The translations under genes were made by a program, and so were the position numbers. Under the pieces are notes generated by a model. The model did no database searches. It saw nothing but the letters and a program-made list of their open reading frames with translations, and had not been told where the DNA came from. DNA of 64,000 nt from Vicugna vicugna (Eukaryota): the NCBI GenBank assembly GCA_013265495.1, contig MU058004.1:312001-376000 (forward strand), read 5' to 3'. Shown piece by piece: positions 2,175-62,769 of this stretch (the first letter of the stretch is position 1; each line of letters opens with the position of its first letter).

Positions 2175-30600
<28,426 letters not shown>

Positions 30601-30985
30601 CGGTGGTGGGCTTTCCGTCCATCCTCCACCTCAGGAAAGGTGGACCTGGAGCCCCACTCAGCCCCAGAGAGTCTGCTCAAGAGGTGGGCCCGTCTGGTGG
30701 TCCCCATCTCGGCCTAAGCCAGAAGGAGGAACCGCAAGTCCACCGGGGGACGGGACACCAACTTCCACTGAAACAAAGCCCAGATCTCTGAATTTCTGTA
30801 CAACAGTCCTGAACATATCCAACCTCCAAGTTCCGCCCCACCCCAGCCCCAGGCTAGGACAGGTAATGAGCCAGTCGGAGACCTTTCAGGTGGTCTGGGC
30901 CCCGGTAAATTAACCCAGCTGCTTGGAGGACGGAAACACAGGTGCAACGGAGACACACACAGCCTGTCCCTGAAACCCCCAGGGC

Positions 30986-30991
30986 TTTATT
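30986..30991 (-). terminator. Probable FN3K polyadenylation signal (AATAAA)
   Basis: tttatt on the plus strand, about 75 nt after the stop, followed on the minus strand by a GT-rich tract. Confidence 0.6.
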
Positions 30992-31065
30992 CTCCCTTAA
31001 GCGGCCTCCGGCGCAGCCACCCCCGGCGTCTGCTCAGCGGCTGGGCAGGGGCTGTCGGCCGGCCA

Positions 31066-31404
31066 CTACTTGAGAAGCTTCCTCATGGTGCCCAGGGATG
31101 GGCTCCTGTACTGCCACCCAAAGTGGTTCCAGTGGTTCAGGTAGTTAAAGAGCTTATAGAGCAGCAGCCGCCGGTCAAACCCCGGAGCCCTGGGGATCTT
31201 GCGGTGGTAGGCGGTGAAGAAGGACCTGGGAAACCCACCAAACATTGAGGCGATTGCCAGTTCAAACTCGGAGTGGCCATAGAAGGAGGCCGGGTCGTAA
31301 ATGATGGGCCCGCTGTCGTCCTCGGCCACGTTTCCCGACCAGAGGTCCCCATGAAGAAGGGCGGGGACAATCTCTAGGCCACAGAACAGATCCGGGATCT
31401 TCAC
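31066..31404 (-). CDS. FN3K: FN3K exon 6 (339 bp coding including stop)
   Basis: [25 protein letters not shown]...NHWNHFG...RKLLK, stop TAG. Confidence 0.97.
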
Positions 31405-37400: not shown

Positions 37401-39341
37401 GAGGGGCTACGAGGCCGAGGCTGCACCTGGACTTGCGGGGGCGGGGTGCTGACACCCCTGCAGCAAGCACAGCTCTGAGAGGTGAGGAGGTCCAGGCCCT
37501 GGGGGAGCATGAGGGCACCAAGGGGTGTCGGGAACATGGGTGACGTTCTGGGGGTGTTGGGGACACTGTCGCGTACTTCAGGGTGCCATGATGTGCTGGG
37601 GGTGCCAGGAGTGTGGGTTAGTGGAAGGGCTGGGGCTGGGCCTGCTTCCCCTCCCAGGTTACCTGCCCCCTCACTGCCTCGAGCACTTACAGAAAATGGG
37701 GGGCAGCATGGGTGGCAGGGCAACGTGCCTAGGGGCACACAGGGCAGGGAGGGCGGGCTGGGAGCAGGACCCCCGCCACCCAGGAGGAAGACAGCCACTG
37801 CCCAGAGCAGCCGAACAGCCTCCACTGGGACCCAGGGGTCTTCCTACTTCTAAAACATCCGCACCAATATCCCAGTTTTAAATTAGGCCAACTCTCATCT
37901 TCGGTACACTATATCTCAGTTAAAAATGTGTTAAAGTGCATTTGTGAGCACCTCTGGATATAGAATTAACCCTCTAGAACAACACCGAAGCACCTATTTC
38001 CACACAGGAAAAGAATTCCATCCCTTAATTCAAGTGCCTGACAGGGAACGAGCAAGGTGTCCTTCCAACTGCCCCCACACCCAGAGCCATGGAGCAAGGC
38101 GCCCAGTGACCCCCCCTAGCCATATTCCCAGGGTGAGCCCCCAAACGTACAGGGCAGAGAACACCTGGGCTTCAGGCTGCCTCCGTCCTGAGGGCCTCAC
38201 CTGTCACCTGTTCTTGTGCACTGGTTGAGCACAGACTGTGTGCTCAGCCAGCACTGACGGGTTCCAAGGCCAGCAGTGACATCCCAGCCTGGACGAGCCA
38301 TCGGGGCCAGCCGCGGAGGTTCCAGGGCCAGCTCAAACTCTGACCCAAACCCCTTCCCGGTAGGTGGAGCTTATCATTTTGAGGGATTTGGGTTCTGAAA
38401 TCAGATCTTCAACAGTTTTCTGTGCTAAAAGAGCAGGGTGCTGGACCAAGACCAACCCACTGTCCATCCTGGTTGCGGGTGGGCAGCAGGGGGACTGGTA
38501 GGGGTCCCTCTGGGTTTCCCTTTGGCCCACAGCCAGCATCCCCACTGCCACACCTCAAAGGGGCCTGGCCCCCAGAGCCCCAGGGACCTCCTTGGAGTCA
38601 TCCCCCAGGGCCAAGGGGGTGCCACCCTCAGCACCTGGGGCGCACACACTATGGACTTCTCCTTCTGTACAGTGTTACTATTTTTCCGTGTGTATCTAAC
38701 AGCAATGTTTTAGGCAGATCGGGAAAACCAGGTCCAACACAGCCTGGCCTGTGAGCAGGAGCCTGGCCCTTGGGGTCCACAAGGGTCCTTCCTGCCTCTT
38801 CCCAACTGCGAGAAGGCCCAGGCCTTGGGGAATGGAGCCCAGCTGGGCCCCAAGGCTCACTGCCGCCATGCCTGATTGCTAGAGAAATTAAAACAGACAC
38901 CAAACTCCTGTGCATCCGGGCAAAAGTACAGAAATTAACTCTACAGCAGGTGGAACGCCAGGACCCAGCAGAAAATGCTCGAGCCTGCTCGCGCTGGTGG
39001 TGACAGCTCTGCCAGGCCGCAGGCTGACCCAGGGCGATGACGCCAGGCCTCCATTTGGACTGGACTACGGCGCCCCCTCCGCTGCGCGCCGGGGCCCCCT
39101 CGCCCCTCCTTTCCCTCTCCCCACCCGCTCCAGGGCCCCCGACGGGGTGGGGGGGGACTCGGGCCGCCGGGAGGGGTTGGGATGAAGTGGGGGCACTCAC
39201 CTGCGCCCTGCGGTTGACCTTGACGAACACGGGGCCCGCATCTGTGTCGTAGGCGCGCCCCTCGCTGATGCAGCCAGCCCCAGGGCTCGAGAAGGCGCGC
39301 AGGGTCGCGGTGCGCAGCTCGGCGCGCAGCAGCTGCTCCAT
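31066..39341 (-). CDS. FN3K: Fructosamine-3-kinase, complete, 6 exons, 309 aa
   Basis: Join 39201-39341, 37083-37234, 36234-36325, 35782-35864, 32224-32346, 31066-31404 = 930 bp. [17 protein letters not shown]...GAGCISEG...HGDLWSGN...[13 protein letters not shown]...MRKLLK*. Confidence 0.97.
32224..32346 (-). CDS. FN3K: FN3K exon 5 (123 bp)
   Basis: [45 protein letters not shown] flanks. Confidence 0.96.
32480..33740 (+). mobile_element. Old LINE-1 fragments in FN3K intron 4 with a nested short L1 3' tip
   Basis: L1 words (aatggtctaaacaccccagttaaa; gaaagctggagtagct; ccacttcacacccact); nested insert at 32524-32590. Confidence 0.8.
35160..35420 (+). mobile_element. Old LINE-1 3' end fragment
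   Basis: gaaatgtccagagtaagcaagtcc...ccactgaaccgtacactttaaaatagtga...gaattacatctca. Confidence 0.7.
35782..35864 (-). CDS. FN3K: FN3K exon 4 (83 bp)
   Basis: [27 protein letters not shown]; gtgagt donor. Confidence 0.95.
36234..36325 (-). CDS. FN3K: FN3K exon 3 (92 bp)
   Basis: [34 protein letters not shown] flanks. Confidence 0.95.
37083..37234 (-). CDS. FN3K: FN3K exon 2 (152 bp)
   Basis: [54 protein letters not shown] flanks. Confidence 0.96.
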
Positions 39342-43879: not shown

Positions 43880-44218
43880 TCATCGGACAAGATTCCTCAT
43901 GATGCTGAGGGAGGAGCCTCGGTACCCTGACCCGAAGTGGTTCCAGTGGTTCAGGTAGTGAAAGAGCTGGTACAGCTGGAGGCGCTGCTGGAAGCCAGGG
44001 GCCTGGGGGATTTGGCGGTGGTAGGCGGAGTAGAAGTTGCTGCTGAAGCCCCCAAACATGCCAGCAATGGCCAGCTCGTACTCTGAGTGGCCGTAGAAAG
44101 AGGCCGGGTCAAAAATGATGGGTCCCGAGGCATCCTCTGCCACGTTTCCTCCCCAGAGGTCTCCGTGGAGCAGGGCTGGGACGATGTCCAGGTCACGGAA
44201 CAGGTCGGGGATCTTGAG
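43880..44218 (-). CDS. FN3KRP: FN3KRP exon 6 (339 bp coding including stop)
   Basis: [25 protein letters not shown]...[23 protein letters not shown], stop TGA. Confidence 0.97.
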
Positions 44219-47200
44219 CTGTGGGGGAAACACACCCTCAGCAAAGTGACCAGCAGTGCAGGGGACGCAGGGGCTTTTCCAAGCGTGGCTGCCCGATCTG
44301 AGCAGAGCCTGGAGCACAGGTGCCCATGACGCACATGGCCCAGGCTGGGCACAGGGATGCCTCCTGTCCAGACTCAGACCCGTCCAGGCTGCACCGACCT
44401 CGGCGCCACCCCGGTGGGGCCAGGGCACACGCGCCCGGGCACCGGGGCACACTCACCTGCAGAGCAGACCAGAGCTCACGGGCCTCCCTGTCCCCAGACC
44501 CCCGCTCCAGCATGTCTATCTGGGGCTGGATGCGCTGCCGGGCGTAGAACGTGACCCAGTCCTGCTGCCAGTCGTTCACCTGTGCGGGCGACACGGAGCT
44601 CAGAGGAAACCACCAGAGCTGAAGGAGGGGCCCGGGGAAAGGTCAGCCATCAGAGACGCCACTGCAGGGATGTATGAGGAGTGGAACTGGCCGGGCAGCC
44701 TGGTCTCAAGGACGTGCCGGGACCTCAGATCCCACCCCAAGAGCAGCAGGGTCCACTATGAAGAGCCCAAGGACATTTTCTCTCAATCCAGTCACTCAGA
44801 CACAGAGCCAGGGCAGGCAGCCCTCCCTGACCCCATGGCTCATTTCTGACCACCCAGCCTCCACAGAGGACCCTCCTCCTTGGGCCCTCTGAGCACCACC
44901 CTCCCAGGGAGGGAGGAGGGGAGGGCTACCACAAGAGAGGACGGCTGGCCTCAGGTGCTGACATCCAGAAGGGAGACAAGACAAGTGCACACAAGAGCAG
45001 CACCACACAGGCCACAGCGTGACTCTCACCACACATACACACACGAGCAGTGACCCCAGAGCAGCAGGACCAGGAATCCCAGCTCTCAGCCACTCACTGC
45101 CCCAAGCAGGGCCCCAGACAACCTCCTGCAACGTATCAAAATCTGAACGGCATCTCCCCACCTGGTAGATTACTCACTGCCCCCACCTGAGAAGCCACCG
45201 GCCTGTCCACGTGGGCGAGTACAGCTCCCCAGGCTGAAACCCCCAGGGCAGCCAACCACAGAATTGTAAAACTCAAAGTCACAGCCCCTTTTCACTGTGC
45301 CACCTCTGAGAGTTTCCTATTTAAAATAAAACATTGTCTAACCTTCTATTTTCACCCACCTTGAAATCCAGCACCCTAACCTGCCGGTCCTTCTCTGCTC
45401 TTCCAAGCTTACCCAGCACAGGAGGCGGGTGCACCTCATGTCAGCCTCTTAAAATCAGCAAAGGGAAAAAGGAGCAAAGGCCTTTTACTGAGTTTCACGG
45501 AACAAGGAGGATGGTGTGCTTTCTCTGGCTGTTTCCGAACAGCTGGCCTGACTGGGAAATGGAGGCAAATGCCGGTGTCACTCACCTGGGGGAGGTATCC
45601 GCAGCATGTCACCACATCGAACCCAAACTGGTCCACAAATGGCCGCTCCACCCGCTCAGCTCCCTTCCCTTGCAAGTAAAAGGAAACGAGAAAGGTGACC
45701 GTCCCGTGCCCCCACAGGCCCGCTCTTGGAGCTCAGAGTAGCTTTGGGGCCTGACCCCAGGGTGCCCTTTCCCACCAGGCGTCCCCACCCAGAGACAAAC
45801 AAGGGCCCTGGTCTCTACCGACCCTCAGGCCCTGGGAACAGAACCTGTCCCTTCAGACTGAACAGTCCAGACACCCACTCCTTCCCCGGAGAGGCATCAG
45901 CGGACGCTCAGAGCCACAACACTGTCCAAAAAAGAGGGGAAATCCACTGGTGACCCACCAGGAAAGGACGGCTCTCAGTGGCCGGTCCCGCACCTGCCGC
46001 CTGTGGGAGACAGACTGCTGTGCTGGCGCGTGGTCTCATCCTCTGCAGCTCCCCAAGCTCGGAGCGCAGCCTGAAGGACTGGTCCGCAGGGCTCGGGAGG
46101 GACAAGGCCTGCCTGTCTGTCTAGCACAGCCGATCCTTGGTCACCTGTTCCCAGTGCGCCAGCTACTCTGGCCAGCAGAGCGGCCACACGGGCTGCACGT
46201 GGATTATCAAATGTCAAGGACCCAGACGACACCCTCAGTGCTAGCACCACAGTAAACTCTGAAAAGGTGGGACAGGAGGGCTCCCCTGCCGAGCCTCACG
46301 CCTGACTGTTCTCAGAAGAGAAGGCATGGAAAGCCGGGGGAACTCTGGCAGGCTTTCTTCTGAGCGACAGGTCAAAGAAACCGTAATGCGCCGGGGTCTC
46401 GAGTTTAGGAAGTGTCTCGTCTTTCACCTGCACTTTCTGCACAGTGCCTAACTGTGCTCACTGCGCCCCAAACACGTAGTGGGGGGGACACGCCTTTCCT
46501 CGGGAAGCAACACAGGTCTGACGGTCCATGGCGGCAGCAAAGGCCCACCCGCACACCCAGCCTGGCCAGACGTCCGCCGGGCGGTCCCTCAGGCCCCGGG
46601 CCATACCCACTGTGCCGGCCTCCTTGCGGAGGGCCTCCCCACGCCTCCTGTTCTCCAGGTGCAGGTCCGCCAGCTGGGCTCCAAGCTTGGCAGCGTGACT
46701 GTGGGACCAAAGGCAGCCACTCAGCGCATGACACAAACAGGGACACCCTCCATCTGGAAGGTCTCGGGCACACCAAGTGGTGAGGCACTGGGGACACAAA
46801 GTTTGTCCTGGTGAAGCAAGGGGGAGATGGAGGGCCCCATCTGAGCCAGCAGCCGGGTCCCCAGTCATGTCTCACCTGGAGGGTCCTTTCCTGTTTGCCT
46901 TTGGCTCGATCACATCCCTCAAAATTATACCCCCAAATGCAAGCTCTCCACTTGGGAAAACAGAGCCCCCAGGGAGGCGCCAAGACGCACCTACTCAGGC
47001 TCTGCATGTCCAGATGCTCCATCACCAGCACGCTGCCACCCCCCGGGGCCTCCAGGACCTTGATGGGCTTGGGCACCCTCACTGTGCCCGTCTCCAGGAT
47101 GGCAGTCAGACTCGCCATCTCCCCCTCAAACATTCTTCTGGCCTGTCAGAGAAATAACAGAGGACAGAGAACAAGGTCTCTTCCAGAAAAGTCCTCTCAG

Positions 47201-50200
47201 CATCGCAACCGTAAACCAAGGCTTCCTGGCTGCTGACTTACTGGGCACGGACGGCTCGTCTGCCTTCCGCAGCACAGACTCTCGTTCTGAAGCCGTATGG
47301 GAATTAGAATGTTCAATAGTGTATGTTTCTACGCTATCACTGGTTCCGGTCTCCCCAGAGGGAGGAGAGTGTGCTGGCTCAGAGCTGGACTGTTTCTGGG
47401 TCGCCCTCAGACAGCACCTCCACCACAGTGCTGTCCCACCTGGGACCTCATCTGCCAGGAACCTGGAGTCACTTCTCACCCAAATGGACCATCAAGTCCC
47501 ATGGCATGTCCTGGATGGACCCAGCTGGAGCCACCTCACCTCGACCACATTCTCAGCTTCTAGTCCAAAAGTCCTTGTTCCCCTGCACGGGAGCAACCAT
47601 TCTCCACCTGGTCTCTGCTTGACATACCCGAGTGATACTTTTGGAAGGCAAATTCCACCATGCAACACACCCGAGCTGGCGGCCCTGCCCACTTCGCCGT
47701 GTAACCGCCCCACAGCTTCTGGTTCCAGCCCACTTTCCTCTGCTGTCTGGGCCTCCTGGGCCCCTCCCCAACACTGACAGAAGCACACACGCCCTACAAG
47801 TTCCCCTTCATTCCCCAAAGACCCCCTGCCTGCTCCCACCTAGCCGCCTCCACATGCCATGTCACCTCCGCTTAGAACACTCTTCCTCCTTCTTTTGCCA
47901 AGTCAGCCCCTGCCCAGTCGGGCTTCAGATTCCAACTTAACATCAGCTTTGATTTCTCAGAGAAATCTTCCCTAACTCACCAAGCTAGGTAATTCCTCCT
48001 TTTAAAATATTTTTTTTCAAATAAAAATGCTACAGAAGTACATGAAAAAAAACCCACACAACTAAGCAGCATACAGAATTCCAGTTCTCCCACAGTCAGC
48101 ACGCCCGCAGGACTGCCAGCCAGATTAGGACGGCCACCACTGCCCGGAGGCTCCCCAGCCCCCAGGCGCTGCCGGTGCCCCCAACGGCGGGGCTATCTGT
48201 CTGCTCATCATTGGCACAGAGGCAGATGGCCAGGCCTGCCTGGTCCACGCCACACCAGCAGCCACTGCTTCTCACCGCTGCCCGAAGCCCCACTGTGTGA
48301 ACATCCCAACCAAATCCATCCAATCGGCTGGGCCTCCAGTTTGGGGTCACTACAAACAGTGCTGCCACGGGCATTCTACATCACAGTTACTAACCCTGTA
48401 ACCCTGGCTTCCTCATCTGTAAGATGGGTTAGCAGTAGTACCTGTCTCACAGGCTGGCCGCCATAATTAACTCAGCTAGCGGCTAACACCTACCTACACA
48501 GTTGTTCTGAACACTCCACAGGTATTATTACTACACTACCCTGGAGAGCTAGAGTTGCTGAGAAACAAGATGTCTTTTTTTTTTTTAAATGTAGGTACTG
48601 GGGATTGAACTGAGGACCTTGTGCATGCTAAGTATACACTCTACCACTGAGCTACACCCTCCCCCCAAGAACCGTGTCTTAAGGAGAATTTTCAGAGCAT
48701 TCTCTTTAGAAGACAAAGAAACACAACTGGGCCCTGGCTGTACTTTGTACTAAAGCACTGGTTGAGCAGCGTAAAGTAAGGGATAGAATTTTTTAAACTT
48801 TTTAATTAAAAAAAAAAGAACATGTGGGGAGAGGTGAAGGAGGATCTGTGCACCCAGGCAGAGGCAAGGCTCCCTCACGGTGATTCGCACAGGTCCAGAG
48901 CATCTAACTAGACCCAAGAACACTGCTCCTCAGTCGTCACCATCACTGGGGGTGCAGGCTGCAAAAGATCCAGACCCTGAGGGAGGAATGTGTGAGAAAA
49001 CACAGCCTGCAAAGGACAGATGAGTGAAATCAGGAGGAAAAACAATGCAGATCAGGCCACTGAAGCAGAGAGTGAGGTAGAAACAGAAGACCAGGTGGTT
49101 CTCTTACAAGCAGGGAAGGGGACATTCTCGCCTCCTAGGAGGTAAAGCAGGAAGAGTCCTATCTTCCCTACGACTGGCAAATGTTTATGCCGTGGCTGGT
49201 GCATCTGCACAACTCACACAGCATGTTTCAGAGCCAACTAGAAAAAGACATGGTTGAAACTGTCTACCAGAGGAGTAGAAGGAACTTCTGTGATGATTAA
49301 CAAAAAGGAAATGGACTTTGGTGACAAAATAAAAAGCAAGAACCCGAGGGAACAGCAGCAGAAGAACAATGTTTAAAAGGCATCACTGAGTAGTTCCATT
49401 TAATCATTAGAAAATATCTGCTTCCCTATAATCTACACCAAGTTTTTACTATTACAAATGCTGATCAGAGTGGAAACACAAACATGAAAAGGACTAACGC
49501 CACAGAGAGGAAAAGAATCCAGAGGAGGCCTGCGGTGGGAAGGAAGGAAGGAAGGAAGGAAGGAAGGAAGGAAGGACGCCACCACTGCATGAGCACTGCT
49601 GGGGGGAAGTCGGTTTAAAGAGCGACTTCACGGACCACTAGCTGCCACATTCCTACAGAGGGACGTGCAGGGTGACACAGCAGCCCATTTCTGTAGAACA
49701 AAGGTTAACTTTGGTCCTGAGAGAACAGTAGGGTTTCAGAAAGAGATCATCCCACACCACAGAAGGTGGAATTCATTTCTGGGAAGGAAATGAAAATACC
49801 TGCAAGAGGATTTCCAAAAAGGAGACAAGAGCACCGAGCACCGAGGCCACCCTGGGCCTCCCAGCTGACAGTCCGGAGTGGGCCACCAGAACTGGATGAA
49901 GAAGTGACATCAACACCCAGGAGTAAGCATTTCAGCAGGGAGGCTCACTCAAGTTCTACAGGAGCCCTTGAGAAAACGTTTAGATACAGAAGGGGGGCGT
50001 GGCTGACACCGACGCAGTGTGTTGCGCCCCCCCAAATCATAGGGTGAAACCTAACCCCCAGAGCCACAATGTTTGGAGGCTGGGCCTTAGGCCGTGACTT
50101 GGCTGTAGGGGTGGAGCCCTCATGTGGGGATTAGAGCCCCTGTGCGACCTCAGAGAGCTCTCTTGCCCCTCGGCCAGTGAGGACTTGGGAAGACGTAGCC

Positions 50201-50941
50201 TCTGCATCTGTCCAGCCTCCAGACTCCGAGAAAGACATGTTTGTGTTCTAAGCCTCCCGGTCTGTGCTGTCCTGTTACAGCAGCCCCAGCGGACCAAGTC
50301 GTGGCTAGATAACTTTAATATTCAGAAACGGTTTTGATCTCTGAAAATTCAAATAACCCCCAGGACAACAGGCTGCTACCACCTGTCCTTGTTCAAAACT
50401 CGCCAAGCAGAATGGACTTTCTCGAAGGAGCGGGCACATGGAATGCGGGAAAGCCGTCCGCAGCACCTACGCGGCAGCGAGTCACGAGGCAGACAGGACC
50501 CGCGCTGACCTGGCACAGGGCGGAGCTGCGGTCCCAGAAAAATGCCAGGCCAGCCCGACGACGAGACGGGCCACCAAGCGCCCGGGCGGCCGCGGCCCCG
50601 GGCTGGGACGGCCTGGCCCGCCCCGGACCCCGGGCCCAGACCCCCAGCCCGGACCGGCTCCCGACCCCACAACGGCCCGGACCCCAGACTCGGACCCCGA
50701 CCCCGATTCCAGACCACCCTGGACCTCCAGCCCCCTCTCCCTTAGGCCGGCCCCGGGTCCACAGACCCCCGCCCCGCCCCCCGCGCGCGGCGGCCCTGAC
50801 CTCCGCCTTGTGGTTCACTTTCACAAACACGCGTCCTTTGTCCGTGTCGTAGCTCTGACCCTGGCTGATGCACCCGCCCCCCGAGTGACCCATGGCCTTG
50901 ACGGAGCTGCAGCCCAGCTCCCGCTTCAGCAGCGCCTCCAT
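43880..50941 (-). CDS. FN3KRP: Fructosamine-3-kinase-related protein (ketosamine-3-kinase), complete, 6 exons, 309 aa
   Basis: Join 50801-50941, 46991-47142, 46607-46698, 45586-45668, 44457-44579, 43880-44218 = 930 bp. [28 protein letters not shown]...HGDLWGGN...[13 protein letters not shown]...MRNLVR*. Exon lengths identical to FN3K. Confidence 0.97.
44457..44579 (-). CDS. FN3KRP: FN3KRP exon 5 (123 bp)
   Basis: [45 protein letters not shown] flanks. Confidence 0.96.
45586..45668 (-). CDS. FN3KRP: FN3KRP exon 4 (83 bp)
   Basis: [27 protein letters not shown]; aag acceptor, gtgagt donor. Confidence 0.94.
46607..46698 (-). CDS. FN3KRP: FN3KRP exon 3 (92 bp)
   Basis: [34 protein letters not shown] flanks. 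Confidence 0.95.
46991..47142 (-). CDS. FN3KRP: FN3KRP exon 2 (152 bp)
   Basis: [54 protein letters not shown] flanks. Confidence 0.96.
48575..48666 (-). mobile_element. tRNA-derived SINE (Vic-1-like)
   Basis: Reverse complement of the same SINE head (ggggattgaactgaggaccttgtgcatgct...ccactgagctacaccctcccc) preceded by poly(T). Confidence 0.85.
49538..49576 (+). repeat. (GGAA)9 microsatellite in FN3KRP intron 1
   Basis: Direct count of perfect units. Confidence 0.95.
50015..50300. mobile_element. MaLR (MLT1-like) LTR fragment
   Basis: ccccccaaatcatagggtgaaacctaacccc...tccagcctccagactccgagaaa...taagcctcccggtctgtg...gttacagcagccc. Confidence 0.7.
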
Positions 50942-51300
50942 GTTCCCCGCGCCCGGGACGCCGACCCGCCTCAGGCCTCACGGAGACGCAGCGACAGCAC
51001 AGGGGCGCGCGGGGAGTGGGTGGGGGCGGGAGAGGCGGGGCCGGGCCCCCAGAACGCGCGGGGATTGGGGGGGAGGAAAGGGGAGGGACCAGACCGCGGC
51101 AGCGCTCGATGATTGGGTAGGCGGCGGGAGGGGCGGGACCTGGCCGCCGGGGGCGGGAGGGGATGGGAGGGGCGGGACCAGGACGCGGAAGCGCGCGGGG
51201 ACTGGGGGAGGGGCGGGACGGCGTTGAATGGGGGCAGGGCCTGCTGTGTTCCCCACCCGCCGTGAGCCCCTGGTGACCCTCCTCCCTGGGGCTCGCCCTG
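50430..51300. promoter_or_regulatory. CpG island / FN3KRP promoter
   Basis: CpG-rich, many GGGCGG boxes; CCAAT on the minus strand at 51064-51068 and 51112-51116. Confidence 0.85.
50801..50941 (-). CDS. FN3KRP: FN3KRP exon 1 (141 bp coding)
   Basis: [49 protein letters not shown] donor. Confidence 0.96.
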
Positions 51301-51560
51301 GCCTTTCCGCTGACCCTGTCTGTAACCTGCCCTTGACCTTGTGCGGCCCGCCCTTGCCTGGGGCACACTCCCTACCCGGCCCCTCCCGGCTTCCCTCCTC
51401 ACCTGTTGGGCTCCAGGTGAGAGCATCTCCTGTCACAGGGTGGCTCCTGCAACACTTGCAGGGGTCCTATCTTTTCTGTTTGCACACGACTGTCCAATTG
51501 GCATCAATCCCCCCAACTAGACTTTAGTGGTTTGAGAGCAGAATAAAGTCTGCCTTGCTC

Positions 51561-52004
51561 TGTCCACTGGAGAAAAGTCACAAGCTGTTAAGTTGAGAAT
51601 TACATTTTACTGAGTCCTTAAGCTTAGGGGGGGGGCTCTCAGGTAGCTCTGAGGGACTGCTCGGAAGAGGTAAGGGAGGAGCCAGGATATAAAGGAGTTT
51701 CAGCAAAAGAAAAAAGTAGTCAAACATCAAAAGATTACTGCTCATTAAAGAAACCAGACATCTCGAGTTACTGAACTTAGCACTTTTCTATGTATGGGAA
51801 GACGCAGGTGTGTGTGCTTAATGAAACCCTTCTTTTTTTTTGAAACCCTTCCTTTGATGTGCACCTTAGCTGTCTGGGGCCAGTGTCCTGTTCTCTCCAC
51901 CCTGAGTCCCCTCAGGGGCACCCTCGGGGCACTGCAAGGGCTGATAACTTGAAAGCCTCAACATCCATTGTTTTCTGATACGCAGGCGGTGTTCTTTGTC
52001 CACA
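51561..52004. mobile_element. Solo ERV LTR (ERV1 class, MER41-like), 444 bp
   Basis: TG...CA termini and a 4-bp TSD GCTC (51557-51560 / 52005-52008); family name from recalled similarity only. Confidence 0.75.
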
Positions 52005-52010
52005 GCTCCC

Positions 52011-52128
52011 TGTGCCAGAAACCAAACCAACCAGATGTATGTGTGTAGAGAGAGAGATTTATCTTAAGGAAACAGTTGTGAAAATTAATAAAGGGAAACC
52101 TTGTTTAAGATGGAGTAGGGATCAAAAC

Positions 52129-52159
<31 letters not shown>

Positions 52160-52924
52160 GATGGAGTAGGGAGGCCAGCAGGGAGCACTCTGACGCTGTC
52201 CACCCAGACACAGACTGAAGGTAAAGACAGGGTCACCAAGTGCCACCACCCTGGGCCACTCACAGTCTATGACAGGGAGGACTGTCAATTAAAGACCCCA
52301 ACATGCAGAATCATCAATATGAAAGAATCCTCCATTAGAGGCCTCACAGGGAAAGATGTTCATTGTGTCTCCTTCAAGAAATCAACCACCCAGGCTACTC
52401 AGCCAATGAGAACGTGTCACCCCCAATTCCCACTTTCCACCAATGGACTTTCGTTCAAACAACCCCTCCAACCTTCTCCTTTTTCTCTGTAAAATGATGT
52501 TTACCTCCTTTGTTTGTTGAACTTGTCTGTGACCTTTGCTGTAGCTGGCTTGTCCCAAGTTACAATTCTTTGTTGTTCCTCAGTAATCCATTTTGCTGGT
52601 AAAAATCACTGGCTGTTGTATTTTTTGGGGTTAACAGGGCTCACACAATTGTGGAGGTGCAAGACCAAGATCTGCAGGGCAGGCCCAAGGGCTGGAGGCC
52701 CAGGGACAGTTCTGTTGGCAGAATGTTTGCTCTCTTCAGGCCTTCAGCTGAGTAGACCAGGTCTACCCACACTAGGATGGGTAATCGCCTTGCTCAAAAG
52801 TCTACTGATTTAAATGTTAATTTAATCTAAAATACACCTTCACAGAAACATCCAGAATAATGTTTGATACCAAATATCTGAGCACCTTGCCCCAGTCAAA
52901 CTGACACATGAAACTGACTACCAC
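52011..52924 (-). mobile_element. MLT2-like (ERVL) LTR interrupted by a nested LTR-like insert at about 52077-52636
   Basis: gagagagatttatcttaaggaa...gctcacacaattgtggagg...aagtctactgatttaaatgttaat...accttcacagaaacatccagaataatgtttga; the nested segment has TG...CA ends. Confidence 0.7.
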
Positions 52925-52999
52925 ATTCCCCATGTTTCCCAGTGATTAGCATGATGCACAACGCCAGTCTTGTCGGGGACATTCAATAAGAATGTGGAA

Positions 53000-53434
53000 A
53001 AACATCAGTATCGCTAATTGTCAGAGAAATGCATATCAAAACTACAATGAAGTAGCACCTCACACCAGTCAGAACGGCCATCATTTTAAAGTCCACAAAT
53101 GATAAATGCTGGAGAGGCTATGGAGAAAAGGGAACCCTCCTACACTGCTTATGGAACTCTCGTTTGGTGCAGCAACTGTGAAAAAAAGTATGGAGGTTCC
53201 TTTAAAAACTAAAAATAGACTTACCATGTGATCCAGCAATCCTACTCCTGGGTATATATCCAGAGCAAAGTCTAACTCGAAAAGACGCATGCACCCCAAT
53301 GTTCATAGCAGCACTATTGACAATAGTCAAGACATAGAAGCAACCTAAATGTCCACTGACAGATGACTGGATTAAGAAGATGTGATATATTTATACAATG
53401 GAATACTACTCAGCCATAAAAAAGAATAAAATAA
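53000..53434 (+). mobile_element. Relatively young LINE-1 ORF2 C-terminal fragment lacking 3' UTR and poly(A)
   Basis: Well-preserved L1 text (cacctcacaccagtcaga...aaaagggaaccctcctacactg...caatgttcatagcagcactatt...ggaatactactcagccataaaaaagaataaaataa) that stops abruptly. Confidence 0.85.
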
Positions 53435-53987
53435 CGAGGTAAAGGTATGTCAGGGCCGAGGCTCCATCTGCATGAACCAGTGGTGGGGGAGCAGGGGGCC
53501 AGGGCATGTGGTTCCAGCAATGGGGGGAGGGGAGTCATCTTCCAGCACAGGATGCCCTGCGAGTGGTCAGGTGGGCTGACAGGTGGTGACTGGCTGCTGC
53601 CTGCTGGCACCCTGACAGGTCCAACGGCCACTAGGGGCGTGGAGTTGTCAGTCCCACCACCGTGTGAGTGAGTGTCCTGGGGCTGCCATGACAACTTACC
53701 ACAAACCATCTGGCTTAAAACAACAGAAACAGCTTATTTTGTTTACAAAGAGAGGAACCTGAGACACAGAAGTGTCTATTTTTCACATCATGTAACATGC
53801 AGTTGGAATGTAATATTCAAATTCCTCAGCTAACATGTTCAAAAACATGTGCTCTGTGGAAACCTATTGTGACACAACACGGCTGTCACTATTTTCCTTT
53901 GTGTAACTTGTCAGGTTACAGACAAAGAGGACAAGATCTGTATTCACTGAATCGGGTTGATGCAGCAAAACACCGCTCTTCCAAATC

Positions 53988-54148
53988 AGGGTTTCTCCCC
54001 CTGGAAACCAGTGCCACTTTGGACGGCTCCCCTCCGTGGAGGGGCATCTGTGTGCTGTGGGTGTTGGGCAGTGTCCCTGGTCTCCCCTCCAGATTTTGCC
54101 GGATGTCCTGGGGCGGGGGCAAAATCGCCTCCAGCTGAGAAGGAAGCA
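53988..54148. mobile_element. MER20-like hAT DNA transposon fragment
   Basis: cagggtttctc...gggcagtgtccctggtctc...ggggcaaaatcgcctccagctgagaa. Confidence 0.6.
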
Positions 54149-54733
54149 CTTTTCTCAGAGAGCTACTTGTTAGGAACTTGATTCTCAGAGGAGCCAAAGC
54201 CCTGGGTCATTTCTTCCGTCAGACCATCAGGGAGTTGAGGGGTGTCCCGACTGCATGGGGGGAGCAATTCCGTTCTTTCTGAACAGGGAACTTGACTCAC
54301 AAACGAACGATGTAGGCGAAACGTGAATTACAGCATCTGCTTTGCGAGCGAATTCTGCACCACGTCTTTGTAAAGCTGATAATGCATGTTTTGATGTCAG
54401 CTGCACAGCTGAGAAGGTAGGTCTCCTGAAGCCCTTGGTGTCCAACCGCAGGAGCGAGGTCATGTTAGTCCAGGGGAGACTTCACCAGCCTGGGGGAGAC
54501 TTGGAGGGAGAGATGGTAGGGGTCTCAAGTTTAGGGACAAACTGAGTTAAAGGTGATGAAAGTAGGATGGTCCACCTCCGATTGCTGCACGTGGGCCCAG
54601 GGTGGGAGGCTCAGCCTAGACTGCTGGTCCAGCACCTGCCCCAGAATCCCGAGAGGAGAGCAGACAGGCTGCCCCTGGTCGGCGCCGTGCCCAGGACAAC
54701 ACAAGCTAAGCTGGTTTTCTTTTCTGTCCCAAG

Positions 54734-54967
54734 TGCTGAGCTTGCAGGACCTGTGTTTCCAGGCAGTGGTGTCCCGCACACCGTGCACCTGGTGGACAAG
54801 CTGCCGCTCCCCTGGCCCTGAGGAGCCACCTCAAGTCCTCCTTGATGGCCAAGGGCCTGAACGCCAGGATGATGCTGGCCTCTCCTACTCCCTCATTGCC
54901 AGCTCCCGCCACAGAAGGAGCCACTCACAGGGAAGGGAAGGCTGCCAGCCCACCCTGGAGCCACCCC
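54734..54967 (+). pseudogene. RAB40B: Frameshifted relic of the RAB40B last exon (SOCS box and C-terminal tail); unitary pseudogene
   Basis: After a polypyrimidine tract and AG (ggttttcttttctgtcccaag), the repaired translation is [61 protein letters not shown], with 1-bp deletions near 54782, 54813 and 54875. Position and strand match RAB40B synteny. Confidence 0.9.
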
Positions 54968-55037
54968 TCCCCAGCGCTGCCCTGGTGGTGGCTCCAAGGC
55001 TCTGTGTCTAAACTGGATTACAGGTGAAAGGATGCCT

Positions 55038-55179
55038 TTTTTTTTTTTAAAGGGGGGAAGTAATTAGATTATTTATTTACTTACTTATTTGTTTGTTTGT
55101 TTGTTTAGATGGAGGTACTAGGGATTGAACCCAGGACCTTGTGCATGCTCAGCACATGCTCTACCACTGAGCTATGCCC
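55038..55179 (-). mobile_element. tRNA-derived SINE (Vic-1-like) with TSD, just 3' of the RAB40B relic
   Basis: Same SINE family; TSD tgaaaggatgcct (55025-55037) / tgaaaggacgcct (55180-55192). Confidence 0.88.
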
Positions 55180-56019
55180 TGAAAGGACGCCTCTTTCCAA
55201 GAAGGAGGTGGAGGCTGAACGTGGGGCCTCGTGGAGCAGCCACCCGGGGCAAAGCAGCAGGAGGTGCCGTGGGCCCCGGGGGACCGGGCTGCCACCGCTC
55301 GTCAGGAGCGACACGTGGAGACCAGTGCTGACTTTGCTGAGACGCCCGGCAGGGTGTCCCTTCTTGGTTCTGCTGCTTGAGTATCAACGAGGGATAAAAG
55401 AATAACTTGGAGAGAAAAGCAAATGCCCAGACCTGCTCAGTTTCTGTTAATGACACAGATTTTTGGAGCTTTAAGGACTCTAGAATTGGGAGTGACACCT
55501 TTATTCAGAGACGGTGGAGCTGAGGTCTAGGGAGGAGGATGGGACAGACATCCATTGGGAAGTAGGCAACGGGACAGCAGGTAAACCAGAGTGGACGGAA
55601 CCTCTGCAAGGGGCTGTGAGCCTGGGAGGACTTGCTGCTGGGGCCAGGGCTCCCTTCTCTGCTGGGCAGTGGATGGAGTGAGCAGCCAGGGGGCTGATCC
55701 ACTGACCACACCACTAGGACACTGCTGTGGTGGGGTGACAGTGCCCTGAGTGCCACCAACAGAGACAAGGAGAGTCCCACGCTGAGCACAAGCCCCTCCC
55801 CAACCTTGAGGGGTGCTCAGAGGTAGAAGGTGCAGGCCCCCCAGGCCTGATGGTGGGCGCCTGGCCTCAAGGCTAAACCAGGCCCTCCCCTTCTGTCTCT
55901 TTCTGTGGTTTAACTGGAGGTCTCCTATCAACTTTATCTGGAAGGAACCAGATAAAGTTCCCAACCCCTTGTCCCAGAGCCCTTCCAGAAGCCTGGTGTC
56001 CAAGAGGCCTCATTACAGA

Positions 56020-56190
56020 CAAAGGATACCTGGGGCCACCAGAAGCTGGATGAGGCAGGAAGGAGCCCCCCAGAGCCCTGCCCACACCTGGATTTCAGAC
56101 TCTGGCCTCCAGAACTGTGAGAGGCAAATTTCCACTGCCTTAAGCCCCCCAGTTTGTGGCCATACGTTACGGTGGTGCCACGACACTCTC
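56020..56190 (+). mobile_element. MaLR (MLT1-like) LTR 3' part
   Basis: ccaccagaagctgga...ccctgcccacacctggatttcagactctggcctccagaactgtgagag...taagcccccagtttgtgg. Confidence 0.75.
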
Positions 56191-57070
56191 ACAACAAAGA
56201 AATGTTATACTTCGCAGTAGAAAGTGGTATTGCTAATCAAAGTGGCATTTCTGTAAAATAAAAAGAAACCCTAATATAGAATGTATTTAAGTGCAACTAT
56301 GCATGTTTTGGTGGTGAGCACCCAGAAATCACAATTGAAATGTAAACTGAACCTTAGAGAAGCCGCTCTCAAAATTCATCATTTTCTTCTATGGCCTCAC
56401 TGCTGGGAAAATCCACCCAAAATATAAATGGGAGCACCAAATTGTGTCCCAGCTGTTTGTAATTCTCTTTTCAAGCATCTAGATTCAAAATAAATTATGT
56501 ACAATTATGTCTTCAATTGCCCTGTGACAACTCCTGCAAAGCAGAATAATTTCCTAGACAGAGAGCTTCAACTGTGATGAGGAGTGATCTGGGCAAACAC
56601 TGAATTTTGGAGAAAATGTTTATTACAGGCTTGATGATATTTGTTTTGCCAAAGACACGGAGATGTAGAAGCTCCCCTTTCCCAGAGAAACCCTGTCATC
56701 TAAGCAGATGTGGATTTGAGAAGTGGGCCTGAATGAAGCTGCTTGTGTGTGGGAACCGGGGAGAGGCTCTGAGTCGTGGAGCTGTCGAGCTGTCGTGGGG
56801 GCGGGACCCTGTGCTCATTGTGTTCATCCCCTGCCCTGGACATACCTGGACTGCAGGTGTCTGGGTGGGAGGCGGAGATAGGACGGGCACAGTGAAGGTG
56901 GAGACCAGATGGCTCGCTGGGCAAGGAGCTCAGGGCCGGACGCTCCTGCCTCCGTGGCCGCTTGTGTTAGAACAGGACCGCGTGCCAGCTCCTCCTTATC
57001 CGGTGACGGGCCGTGTCCCGGAGCTGTGTGCCGGCGGCTCTGTGTGTCCTCGCGGGAGAGTCTGTACATT

Positions 57071-57273
57071 CATTTGACCCTCGGACAACGCAGGCGTTAG
57101 GTGCAACGACCCTCCACACAGTCACAAATCCGCGAGTAACATAGCTGCCCGCCCATCCGCCGGATCTGCGGTTCTGCAAACGTGGATCCAACCAACCACG
57201 GTCGTGCAGTCTGTGGCGTTTTCCATGAAAACACTCCGCTGCTGAGAGGCCCCGCGTTGTCCAGGGGCACCGG
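57071..57273. mobile_element. MER8-like Tigger DNA transposon (MITE)
   Basis: Imperfect terminal inverted repeats catttgaccctcggacaacgc ... gcgttgtccaggggcaccgg followed by TA; internal ggatccaaccaaccacgg. Confidence 0.65.
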
Positions 57274-57499
57274 TACTCCCATTTCCCCACTTCTGTCCAC
57301 TTTGCTGTTTTTGCGTACATTGTACTAGCATATCTGTTAAAAAAACCCATAATGCACTGTTATTTTTACAGAGACACTGATGGATACTTTTACCAGTTAA
57401 AAATGAAACGGCTCTTACATTTACTTTAATTTCCCTGATTTCTGGGAGGGCTCAGTTACCGTGGGCGTCTGGGTCCTGTCTGCTCCTGAGGGTCCCTTT

Positions 57500-58300
57500 G
57501 AATCGTCGCCCCCATGGGGCTCAGTGTCCTGGGGGTCTGCTTCGTCCCCAGCAGGTGGTTCCCTCCCCCAGGCCCGCCCCGCCCCGCCCCATGCTCTCGG
57601 CGCTCCGCGGCTCCCTGGCTGCGCGCGCAGGCGGTGGGCCTCTTGCTTCCGGCCGCGGCGGCCTCGGCGCTGGCGAGACGGACCCCGGCGGCCGGCCTCC
57701 CCGAGCGGCATGCGGCGCTGAGGCGCGGCGGACCCCGCGGCGGCGCCATGAACCTCCTGCCCTGTAACCCGCACGGCAACGGGCTGCTCTACGCCGGCTT
57801 CAACCAGGACCACGGTGAGGAGAGCCCCCGGCGGCCCGGCCCTCCTGCCGCCGCCGCTCCGCGCGGGGTCCCGCCCCTCGGCCGGTCGCGCCCCGGGAGG
57901 GCACCCGGGGCCTGGCTGCTCGGCGCCCGCCCCGGCCCCCCGCTCCGGGCCGCGCTCCCGCCCGTCCGACGGGGAGGGTTTTCCGGGGGGCTGTCGGGCC
58001 TTTCCGGCTGGGTCGGGGTCTTAGCCCTCGTGGCGCCGCGCCCGCGCGCCCGGGACCGCGTCCGCCGAGGTCCTCGCCTTTTCTGTGGGCCTGGATGGAA
58101 AGCGTCGCCGGCCGCACTCTCTCCTTGTGCCGAGTGGAAATTGAACTGTCCAGCACGCCGCTGGGGCCAAGGCAGTTTTCGCGTTTCCGAGTCGGGCGGG
58201 CCGCGGGGCCGCGCCCCACGTTCACCCGAGAAGGGGACTCGCGTCTCGGCTGCTCGACTTCGCTTTGGTAGCTGCTTGAAAGAGAACCCCAAAGCAGGAG
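57500..58300. promoter_or_regulatory. CpG island / WDR45B promoter
   Basis: Dense CpG; GC boxes at about 57573-57590; ETS-type CTTCCGG at 57646-57652; NRF1-like TGCGCGCGCAGGCG from 57620. Confidence 0.85.
57748..57814 (+). CDS. WDR45B: WD repeat domain 45B (WIPI3) exon 1 (67 bp coding)
   Basis: gccATG; MNLLPCNPHGNGLLYAGFNQDH(G); gtgagg donor; inside a CpG island. Confidence 0.96.
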
Positions 58301-59839
58301 CTGCAGGACGCGTGTTTGTAGGGGTGGTTTGGGGAGATTTTAGCAGAGCGGGAGCGTGTCGCTTTGGCTCTTGGGGTGCTGACTGCGAGGTTCTGACTGT
58401 GGCGTCCCAGGAGCCGAGGCGAGGCGGCCTTTTCATTCCGGGAGGAGCCCTGAGGTCAGGAAGGGTCCTTGGAGGGGCTGGGCTGGGCTGTGCTGGGGAC
58501 CGCCAGCGCTTGGTCCCACTGCGGGGCCAGCGGGGTGCTCCTTGGGGGCCGGATGTTGGACCTCGGGCAGTGTGTGGCCAAAGACTTTGGCGCTTGATTT
58601 CCTGAGGAGGGCCAGTAGGTTTCTTTTCTTTTCTTTTTCTTTGTTTAAAACAAGTTTTGGTAAAATTGAGAACTCTTTAAGGAGTTAACAGCGATATAGC
58701 AACTCCTTAAGAAATGTGCTTTCAGTAGACGTGACTGGTGATAGTGATGGAGGGGAGAGGCAACTCTGAAAAACACACACAGAAGCAAAAAGCTTATTGA
58801 CTCCGAGGCCATTAAATGCAAAATCTTTTACATCTGTGTTAGTGCCAAACGAGGGACCTTTGTATTAAGTTTCAGCGTAAAAATTGAGTCACAGAATGAT
58901 GCTAATTATTTTGGAAACCAGTGAAGTTTATGACGTCTTTATAAAGTTCCCATCAAAGATTATTTTAAAAGTACAGCTTTGGCTTTTAAATGGATATATT
59001 CCGTTGTCTGAAAAATCTGTTTTCACTTTCCTAAAACCACGTTATTTCATTGCAACAAATAACAAGTAAAGCTTATAGTATTGTTGAAAAAAATATGCTT
59101 TTATACTTAAACTCCTGGTTACTGTTAGGTTAATTTCCTATAATGTAAATTTATGCTAGATTGTTGAGTTCATTACATTTTTTTACTTATACTGATTTTT
59201 AATTTTTACTTAGCATTTTTCGCACTCTTGTTGCAACTTCAGGTTTAGAAATCATTTTTAAAAGAACATTTGCTCATAATTTTAAATTGTTCAAACTTTT
59301 GACTGGTTTTCTCCTAAAGATAATGTGCATTACAATTTTCAAGATTCCTGCATGTTAATATGAACGTTTCTGTCGTCTGGGTGCCTGCTTCTCTTTCTCT
59401 TCCTTCCCATGGGAGCCCCGGGTGTTTGATTACATACACCTTCCCTGTTCACTGGCTTGTCCTGCCTGGACCAAGCCTGGGGCCACAGGCTGACCCGGTG
59501 GGCAGGCTCTTCTGTGGTTCTGGAGTATGGGTGAGGAGTATTTGCATGTGGATTGCACGTGCTCACGTGGAAGGACGCCCTGGAGTGATTCTGATGCTCT
59601 GTTGCCAGGCGGCTGCCCCAGGGGTGTGCTTGGCATCAGCTGCTGGGTTGGGACTTTTCTGTGGGAAAAACTTGTTCAGAGAGCAGGAACGGGAACATTA
59701 GTGCCAGCTTCTGTGTGATAACCTAGTAAAGTCAATTCATCAATCCCTCCCACCAAATAGCGAGGATAATCCCCAGCCTCTGTGGAGAGCGGTTTCCAGT
59801 CTTCCGTTGTCTATAGGGCCCTTTCTTGTAGCTTTTGTG

Positions 59840-60560: not shown

Positions 60561-61705
60561 ATTATGTGGTTCCAGTAAACAAAGAGGGAGTTACAGCCCA
60601 GAGTAAATTAGAGATAATGAGTGACACCTCACTCTCCAGTGAGTGTCTGACTGCAGGCGCAAGTAAAGTGCACCTCAGAGCCTGAGAGCTGATCGTGCAA
60701 CGGTCTCCCCTCCTGGGGAAGCGGCCTGGTCCTTGTGGTCTAATAAGTAACTTGGACAAAAAACAGAAACATGCTTTTCACATTGGGAGGGTGGCTGATA
60801 GGATAGAGTAGTGTGGTCCCAACGCTGGAACGTGGATCGGGACCAGAGGAGAGACCCTGAGGGCGGCTCTGACAAGTCAGACCTGTGGAGCGGTCGCGCT
60901 GTGAGGGGCCAGGCTCTGCAGCCTATCCTGTGAAGATCGTTGGAGGGTTTGGTTTTTCTCCTTCCAGCCACAAGCCTCATTGAATCAGCACTTGGACATG
61001 GTGACATTTAAGGTCATACTTAGGGAATGAAGTCCAGGTCACAGGACCATCTTGAAGTTTGAGTGTCTCTTTCCTAATGGTGCCTTCAGCTGAACCATGA
61101 ACAGTCTGTTGTGTGAACTGGGATGGTGACTCCTGTGCCGGGTTCAGGGAGTCAGGGTTAGTGACAAGGGGGAGTATGGTCATGGAGACCTCAAGCTGCC
61201 TTCTGAAAGGCCATCCCGTTGTGGCCCGTTTCCCCTTCCCCACTGGGTGTGCCCACACCTTCTGGGGTTGCACACTTTGTGGCTGTTCTCCAGGAGATGG
61301 GGGCTTTCTTGTTTGTCACTGTGCCTCTAGGACTCGGTACCTGACACAGCCCGGCAGAGATGTGTTGGGAACTGAGAGGCCTGTGTGAGCACCGGAGGCA
61401 GCACTGGAGGGAGATGCCAGGCGGCAGAGTGGCTGGTGCAGGTGGCTGGAGTTAGGGGTGGGGCAGAGCCTGGTGCCCCACAGGGCCTGGTGGGGGAGGT
61501 GGAGCCAGACTGGGGAGGTGGAGCCAGACTGCGAAGGCTCCTTTTGCTGGTACGCGCGCAGCCTCTGACCCCAGTGTAGGGGAGTCGTTTGTGTGGTGGA
61601 GAGGCCGCTTCCTCTGGACCCCCTGCTTGTGCCGCTCAGGCCTGGGGAGCCCGTCGTCCAAGCTGAGAGCCCAGCAAGGTGCTTACCGTGTCTCTCTCAC
61701 TTTAG

Positions 61706-61780
61706 GGTGCTTTGCATGTGGGATGGAGAATGGATTCCGCGTGTATAACACCGACCCGCTAAAGGAGAAGGAGAAACAAG
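61706..61780 (+). CDS. WDR45B: WDR45B exon 2 (75 bp; gene continues past the right edge)
   Basis: tttag acceptor; CFACGMENGFRVYNTDPLKEKEKQ; gtaag donor. Confidence 0.96.
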
Positions 61781-62769
61781 GTAAGAGAGATCGGAATTTC
61801 TGGGCTCCTCCTCTTTCCTGGTCCTCAGAATCTAAACTGTATCCTGCAGGTGGGGGCGCTGATTGTGAGATGTGAGTGGGGTTCGTGGCCCGCCGTCAAC
61901 GCGGACAGGGCTGTCCTGGGGCCGGGGCACAGGGGTGGGTCAGCGGGCTCTCCTGTGAGGCTAGCCCTGCGGGCCCTGCGGAGGGGACATGCCCCCCTCC
62001 CGTCCAGTGTCAGCCTTGGGAGAGCGCTGGGAGGGCTTTAGCCACGCACATAGGACTCTGGCTCTTAAAATGACCCACGTTTAGAAAATACTATTCTTAG
62101 CAATAAATTACAGTTGCTTATGTTGATGTATTTCAGTGTCTTAAATTATGTTTTCATGGATTACAAGTTTTCAGTGCTGGAATCAGGAATTCTCTTGGTG
62201 AAATAAAATAATGGTGGTTATATTCCCATTTGACAGGAAAGACGTGTAATTTATGGGTAGAATCTTTGCAGTTACTTCTACTTCATATTTTTCTCAAGCT
62301 TTTAGTGTTTCCTGGTCCTTACCTGCCAACAGGTGAACAAATCTCATAGTCATAGACAATGAAAAACATCCTTTTTCTTCCTGCAGTTGTGCTTTGGTTT
62401 TTATTCAGTGTGCAGGCTGTATTTTTCTTTCCTTTTTCTTTTTTCTTTTTTTTACCCTTAATATGGATTTTATTCTGTTGATGAAGGCTGTATTTTCTGG
62501 TGCTGGAACTGTTTCTCCTCTGTAGGAGGAAGTCACTGGATGCTGGGCTCCCCCCTCAGGCCCCTTCTGTTTTGACAACTAATACTCTACGTTGGGGATT
62601 TTCAGAATTGGTTTTTGGCAGTGGACCCCCTTTGCCAGGTCAAACCTCCCACACAACCGTGTGTGTAAAACAGTGAGTGGTGCTTTGTGTCTAGGGGTTT
62701 ACTTTGTAAGCTGATGTCTGTAACTTTCATTTACTAGAGGAAGACAGAGTAGCCCAGTAGAGAGGGGTG

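Follow-up and report, generated by a model that had tools for sequence, protein, structure and literature searches.

A decayed sequence lying between FN3KRP and WDR45B in a New World camelid genome is very probably an in-place unitary pseudogene of RAB40B. The sequence corresponds to the last coding exon of the gene, is broken by frameshifts and can encode no Rab40B protein. It is a real finding, but a further case of a well-known event, the lineage-specific loss of a gene. To our knowledge the Rab40 proteins stand alone among Rab GTPases in serving also as substrate adaptors of Cullin-5 ubiquitin ligases. Their SOCS box recruits Elongin B/C and Cullin-5, and their C-terminal tail is prenylated. 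A unitary pseudogene is a gene that has been lost in place without a surviving copy, as has happened to GULO in primates. By the window we mean the whole stretch of DNA that was analysed, 64,000 nucleotides that form positions 312001-376000 of a contig (C1214) of 403,394 bases and that are without any N.

The exon 6 relic and its position

The relic came to light through its similarity to Rab40 proteins. A protein search with the frame of the relic alone gave one odd primate Rab-40A-like model as its sole match, and this led to the RAB40B sequences. When eight Rab40 proteins, gathered through two protein searches, were compared with the 64-kb window by tblastn, matches at E<0.01 were found only at 54697-54967 (+), where they fall in three frames and cover RAB40B residues 187-267 (the linked matches of pig RAB40B have an E value of 2.4e-10). 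A frameshift-aware protein-to-DNA alignment was written for the relic and joins the pieces into a single alignment. Its score is 246, against a mean of 33.3 for 40 shuffles of the same DNA (standard deviation 5.7, maximum 51) and 40 or less for 20 other segments of the window. The signal is far above chance. The features of the relic are as follows.

54716-54733 (+): retained 3' splice site of RAB40B intron 5, from the sequence and from the AG aligned to it in a bird RAB40B locus (L016)
54734-54998 (+): relic of the last coding exon of RAB40B, from tblastn, the frameshift-aware alignment, the shuffles and the count of conserved columns
54535-55011 (+): open reading frame with a RAB40-like piece of 17 residues and, later, one of 15 residues
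54546-54821 (+): open reading frame with a piece of 10 residues
54740-55027 (+): open reading frame with pieces of 20 and 12 residues

On inspection of the sequence a pyrimidine-rich tract at about 54716-54731 is followed by AG at 54732-54733 and then by RAB40-like coding sequence from 54734 (+). The alignment takes in RAB40B residues 187-276 of 278, of which about 189-276 belong to the exon, and the relic contains the second half of the SOCS box, with the BC-box LQDLC and the Cul5-box LPLP, together with the C-terminal tail. In the list of stop-to-stop open reading frames the RAB40-like pieces are spread over three frames of the plus strand. With Pfam none of the three single-frame open reading frames gave a family, the SOCS box included, which is to be expected as the pieces are only 10-20 residues each. 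The relic is single-copy in the assembly.

In the frameshift-aware alignment the relic is identical to RAB40B at 63 of 93 positions for the walrus, 60/93 for the macaque, 55/93 for the deer and 53/82 for the pig, against 45/93 for a RAB40C model from the camel. The glycine-rich insert of RAB40C-type sequences is absent. That the relic is nearer to RAB40B than to RAB40C and is without the insert argues for its descent from RAB40B.

The start of the relic can be compared with that of an intact exon. The exon-6 peptide of the deer was used to scan metagenome contigs, which gave no mammalian locus but two others, L016 and L017. L016, on a metagenome contig of 5160 bases, is an intact bird RAB40B in five exons that are 96-97% identical to the chicken RAB40B model. 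Its last exon begins at the same residue as the relic (V189), and in a DNA alignment its acceptor AG falls on the AG at 54732-54733 of the window, with the intron just upstream aligning weakly. The window sequence upstream of the relic is intron-like, with no resemblance to the end of exon 5. By these alignments, the relic keeps the parental exon-intron boundary. As a side observation, L016 is host DNA within a metagenome, and L017 bears a RAB40C-type last exon.

The order of genes in the window is FN3K (-), FN3KRP (-), relic (+) and WDR45B/WIPI3 (+), such that the relic is on the strand of WDR45B. We take FN3KRP, RAB40B and WDR45B to follow one another in the same order in human, where the FN3KRP-WDR45B interval presumably measures several tens of kilobases. 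In the window the distance from the ATG of FN3KRP at 50941 (-) to that of WDR45B at 57748 (+) is 6.8 kb. The neighbouring genes were identified from the following exons.

31069-31404 (-): last exon of FN3K, near-identical to the human FN3K chain 9cx8_A (E 1.3e-69, 235.5 bits)
43883-44221 (-): last exon of FN3KRP, from Pfam PF03881 and 100% identity to the alpaca protein P0126
50801-50941 (-): exon 1 of FN3KRP with its ATG at 50941, from 100% identity over 47 residues to the alpaca ketosamine-3-kinase P0126 and from the open reading frame
57748-57816 (+): coding part of exon 1 of WDR45B (WIPI3), an open reading frame that begins MNLLPCNPHG and lies inside a CpG island at 57001-58999

Pfam places fructosamine-kinase exons at 31069-31398 and 43886-44212 (-). 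The last exon of FN3KRP matches the human FN3K chain with 182 bits, against 235.5 for the exon at 31069-31398. FN3KRP is 100% identical to the Vicugna pacos ketosamine-3-kinase and 97% identical to a Camelus ferus model, which marks the genome as that of a New World camelid or a very near relation. Over the six exon matches of FN3KRP the identity to the alpaca model is 93-100%, exon 3 being loosely delimited. Exon 2 of WDR45B lies within 61456-61872, where the WIPI3 chains match with E 3.4e-11 as against 0.0044 for WIPI4, and a further PROPPIN exon is found downstream of it on the same contig.

Some other features of this region may be recorded here. FN3K (31069-39341) and FN3KRP (43883-50941), both on the minus strand, are tandem paralogues with matching exon layouts, and each FN3KRP exon has a weaker counterpart in FN3K. 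A Camelus ferus hypothetical protein of 582 residues (P0127) matches the FN3KRP exons within 43883-50557 (-); it also matches stretches that are intron or upstream sequence in the alpaca model, for example 46259-45996 and 50557-50471, and looks to be an over-extended gene model. Directly past the 3' end of FN3K there is a strong CpG island at 29001-31000 (GC 0.68-0.69, observed/expected 0.79-0.96), which is probably the promoter of the gene that follows on the minus strand, presumably TBCD. Just downstream of the relic ARAGORN reports a tRNA-Ala-like element at 55111-55180 (-), with a T-run and a TTTG-rich stretch preceding it, within 55040-55190. By its appearance the element is the head of a tRNA-derived SINE that entered what was once the 3' UTR of RAB40B.

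An earlier note, made from the sequence alone, had described the polypyrimidine tract with AG at 54732-54733 and the pieces in three open reading frames, and the sequence and the list of frames agree with it. Its assignment of the pieces to RAB40B and not to RAB40C is upheld by the counts of identical residues (63/93 and 60/93 against 45/93), and its placing of them between FN3KRP and WDR45B, on the strand of the latter, by the identification of the neighbours from sequence matches. The note had further read the relic as an in-place pseudogene and no retrocopy; with the similarity stopping at the exon-5/6 boundary and the AG aligned to that of the bird, this reading has stood.

Lesions and missing exons

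The relic does not carry its SOCS box in one frame: the BC-box and LPLP are visible, but 1-bp deletions spread the sequence over three frames. The lesions and the former end of the coding sequence are as follows.

54781-54785 (+): first 1-bp deletion, between ...VVSRTP and HLVDK; the protein alignment and the bird DNA alignment agree
54812-54814 (+): second 1-bp deletion, right behind LPLP; the protein alignment and the bird DNA alignment agree
54875-54876 (+): third 1-bp deletion, behind NARMM, in both alignments; the deer query puts the deletion at 54888
54922-54928 (+): 1-bp insertion in the variable tail, the exact base being uncertain (54922 or 54928 in the protein alignment, depending on the query, and about 54928 with the bird DNA)
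54958-54962 (+): probable fifth shift, of uncertain sign and place (an extra base at 54962 in the protein alignment against a 1-bp gap near 54958 with the bird DNA)
54987-55011 (+): former CAAX and stop region, from the open reading frames, the alignment and the conserved columns

With its 1-bp gaps at about 54781, 54812 and 54876, the DNA alignment to the bird exon 6 gives independent support for the three deletions. The sign and place of the fifth shift are uncertain because the length of the tail varies among species. At the C terminus the relic reads GGSK where RAB40B has N-S-C-K, and the prenylation cysteine is lost (column 95, C to S). There is no stop after GGSK in its frame; the TAA at 55009-55011 belongs to another frame.

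To gauge the extent of the decay the relic, with an X at each break, was aligned to 83 RAB40B-type exon-6 sequences from the fetched proteins. To be included a sequence needed the start motif of exon 6, a tail between 80 and 100 residues long and, after LPLP, residues of RAB40B type; 139 sequences passed the start-motif and tail filters, 31 of them RAB40C-type. Judged against the 83 sequences, the relic departs from the consensus at 13 of the 57 conserved columns, namely at 4 of the 27 that are invariant and at 9 of the 30 that are conserved to at least 90%, the CAAX cysteine being among the latter. The four invariant residues are replaced C to F, R to Q, C to R and F to S, all of them in or beside the SOCS box. 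The intact RAB40B-type sequences deviate from the consensus at a median of 0 columns and at 10 columns at most. It would seem that the relic has been free of selection, and probably for a long time.

The remainder of the gene was sought in the interval upstream, in the window and its flanks, and in the assembly.

50942-54715 (no strand assigned): interval expected to hold the RAB40B promoter and exons 1-5, from tblastn and CpG content

Beyond the relic no Rab-like exon was found in the 64-kb window, all other tblastn matches having E values of at least 0.24. A permissive tblastn of 50.9-57.8 kb gave only matches at chance level (E at least 0.9), several of them with stops, on the wrong strand or out of order. 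No match to RAB40B was found in either 10-kb flank of the window, and there is no second CpG island between those of FN3KRP and WDR45B, the observed/expected ratio of CpG being 0.12-0.50 over 51001-56000. Several stretches were considered as decayed exons and rejected: an upstream match at 52815-52865 to residues 159-175 (E 0.9-9.1, with an internal stop), 47797-47910 (at chance level and within the FN3KRP gene), and 53679-53753 and 51904-51930 (both at chance level).

A six-frame search of the whole assembly, 2.03 Gb in 12,405 contigs, was run with pig RAB40B as the query, and all 127 of 127 candidates were scored. No RAB40B-type exons 1-5 were found in the 2.03 Gb of assembled sequence. Such exons would have scored above those of RAB40C. 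Pig RAB40B matches best to six exons that belong to a single locus, RAB40C, on a contig other than that of the window (C7944). In four of the six exon matches it is 96-100% identical to RAB40C of ferret, horse and camel; the other two are 100% identical over the exon proper, and their remainder runs into the intron. This gene is intact through CKIS, and RAB40C is the only intact Rab40 gene in the assembly.

What is left of the matches in the assembly falls to other Rab genes, with identities of 22-57%, and to an old intronless Rab40 copy, L011 (C10123:9177159-9177860, -), in which residues 16-276 are represented but broken by 8 frameshifts and 1 stop. L011 is of RAB40C type, with the glycine-rich insert and TVKSHLKSF, and by these marks is a processed pseudogene of RAB40C; it offers no spare copy of RAB40B. 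A blastn comparison of the FN3KRP-WDR45B interval with about 130 kb of the same genome gave two short repeated segments only.

The three 1-bp deletions and the probable fourth shift of the earlier note were recovered within 1-3 bases by the two alignments, and the prenylation motif that it had called unrecognisable is indeed replaced, with GGSK for NSCK. The GTPase-domain exons, which it had reported as absent, are missing from the window, the 10-kb flanks and the assembly alike. It had also held that the neighbouring genes are free of frameshifts, with which the intact FN3KRP and its six exon matches at 93-100% to the alpaca agree. Lastly it had proposed a search of the whole genome for RAB40B; as run with pig RAB40B, this found no intact copy, with RAB40C as the best locus.

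Probable loss in place and the alternatives to it

The locus has no Rab GTPase domain (PF00071), no SOCS box in a single frame and neither CAAX box nor stop, all of which belong to a functional RAB40B. What it has is what would be looked for in a unitary pseudogene: an exon-intron boundary, lesions, no intact copy in the assembly, and orthologues in related lineages. Full-length RAB40B is annotated, in the form of annotation models, in pig, cattle, goat, sheep, deer, cetaceans, horse, carnivores and bats. It would seem likely that one or more deletions removed the promoter and the five GTPase-domain exons, by which the interval shrank to 6.8 kb. The surviving exon would then have drifted unconstrained, taking up three deletions of 1 bp, a further shift or two and the replacements at invariant sites. 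The loss would be old and fixed. RAB40C probably covers the functions shared with RAB40B, among which may be the role as a CRL5 adaptor.

The loss might instead be recent or polymorphic and limited to one species or individual, as opposed to old and lineage-wide. We regard this as unlikely, but it deserves to be taken seriously, as only New World camelid-like sequence has been seen at the DNA level. The state of the relic speaks against it: its roughly 265 bp carry no fewer than four shifts, and 13 of the 57 conserved columns are altered. This implies long neutral drift, as a reading of the lesions and not as a dating of them. The lesions are not the only point. Fourteen DNA runs, under three organism labels and from five studies, contain 0.79-0.85 of the sampled 31-mers of 50900-57800, a share that does not resolve words spanning the frameshifts or any deletion junction and to which the best-matching run may contribute as the source sample. 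Among the 120 best of 656 Rab40 relatives there is no RAB40B from a camelid, whereas a Camelus RAB40C is listed, and there is none among the 62 listed members of eight RAB40B clusters, the two largest of which are represented in part.

It is improbable that the relic is an artefact of assembly, with a complete RAB40B present in the real genome, some 40-60 kb collapsed and the shifts being sequencing errors. The assembly is fragmented, with its 12,405 contigs, and exons may lie in unassembled sequence. However, the window is without N, and a skipped segment should form a contig of its own, yet the assembly holds no RAB40B-type exon 1-5. Sequencing errors would not change 4 of 27 invariant columns and remove the CAAX cysteine beside an FN3KRP that is clean at 93-100%. 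The contigs of the 14 independent DNA runs also contain about 80% of the 31-mers of the interval. The interval is reproducible in independent data, and its indels and its contiguity over 50.9-57.7 kb rest on the assembly and on this sharing of k-mers.

We give still less credence to a truncated gene that remains in use, be it as an exon spliced into an upstream exon of WDR45B or into a non-coding RNA, or as a short SOCS-box-like peptide. The splice acceptor is kept, and some RNA runs (X15-X20) contain 0.06-0.14 of the words of the interval. These words may stem from the first exons of FN3KRP or WDR45B, however, which are inside the searched stretch; no frame is open through the SOCS box, and invariant residues of the SOCS box are replaced. 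Runs X21-X24 contain 0.03 or less of the 31-mers of 50900-57800.

There is next to no chance that the relic, instead of being RAB40B in place, is a retrocopy or a RAB40C fragment. The genome does contain a decayed Rab40 retrocopy, L011, but this is of RAB40C type and runs without introns through residues 16-276 on a different contig, whereas the relic ends at an exon boundary with an acceptor, is nearer to RAB40B and sits between FN3KRP and WDR45B. A processed pseudogene was likewise rejected: of the exons there is exon 6 alone, at the parental site and with an acceptor at its edge.

Possible reach of the loss and comparison with known genes

If RAB40B was lost in place, the question is how far the loss extends. 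The chances seem to us evenly balanced that the gene was lost in the camelid stem tens of millions of years ago, in which case all living camelids would be natural knockouts that live on RAB40C alone. That the loss includes the Old World camels could equally well be true or false; the lack of a camelid RAB40B among the relatives and cluster members listed, beside a Camelus RAB40C, lends it weak support at the level of annotation.

A 2023 review has Rab40B and Rab40C present in the genome of all vertebrates (PMC10509765). In the same text the SOCS box with the LPLP motif is described as binding Cullin-5, and the redundancy of the Rab40 proteins is discussed and named as an open question (PMC10509765). 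In one family with Charcot-Marie-Tooth type 2 the disease has been linked to a nonsense mutation of RAB40B by which the SOCS box is lost (PMC10789172). If the loss did take place in the stem, the camelids would be an exception to the rule that all vertebrates keep both genes, and would offer a natural test of the redundancy of Rab40B and Rab40C for a gene that is linked to human axonal neuropathy. Should a mammalian lineage prove healthy in the absence of RAB40B, it would demonstrate that the role of the gene can be covered in vivo by RAB40C or by other pathways, and it would supply cells that are naturally without RAB40B. No report of the loss of RAB40B was found in the literature that was searched, though genome-wide catalogues of gene loss and their supplements may list it.

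The relic is also of some use for annotation. It explains why no RAB40B model would be built at this locus, which is not to be taken as an assembly gap. A relic of a single exon is easily missed, and annotation pipelines may score just a missing gene.

Set beside RAB40B itself, a Rab GTPase with a SOCS box that acts as a Cullin-5 ligase adaptor, the relic shares a recognisable BC-box LQDLC and Cul5-box LPLP, the RAB40B-type residues after LPLP, the exon-6 boundary and the site between FN3KRP and WDR45B. It is, however, without GTPase domain, promoter, open frame, CAAX cysteine or in-frame stop, and is a remnant and not a gene. RAB40C of this genome belongs to the same family as the gene from which the relic derives and has the same six-exon layout. 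It is found at another locus, with its SOCS box and CKIS intact, and its exon 6, identical to the relic at 45/93 positions, bears the glycine-rich insert that the relic lacks. The processed RAB40C pseudogene L011 resembles the relic in being a dead Rab40 sequence with frameshifts. It differs in being intronless and of RAB40C type, in taking in nearly all of the coding sequence and in its site away from the parental locus, in none of which the relic follows it. With the unitary pseudogenes of mammals the relic has in common the ancestral position, a kept boundary, lesions, the lack of a functional copy and intact orthologues in sister lineages, though here most of the gene is physically gone and one exon is left.
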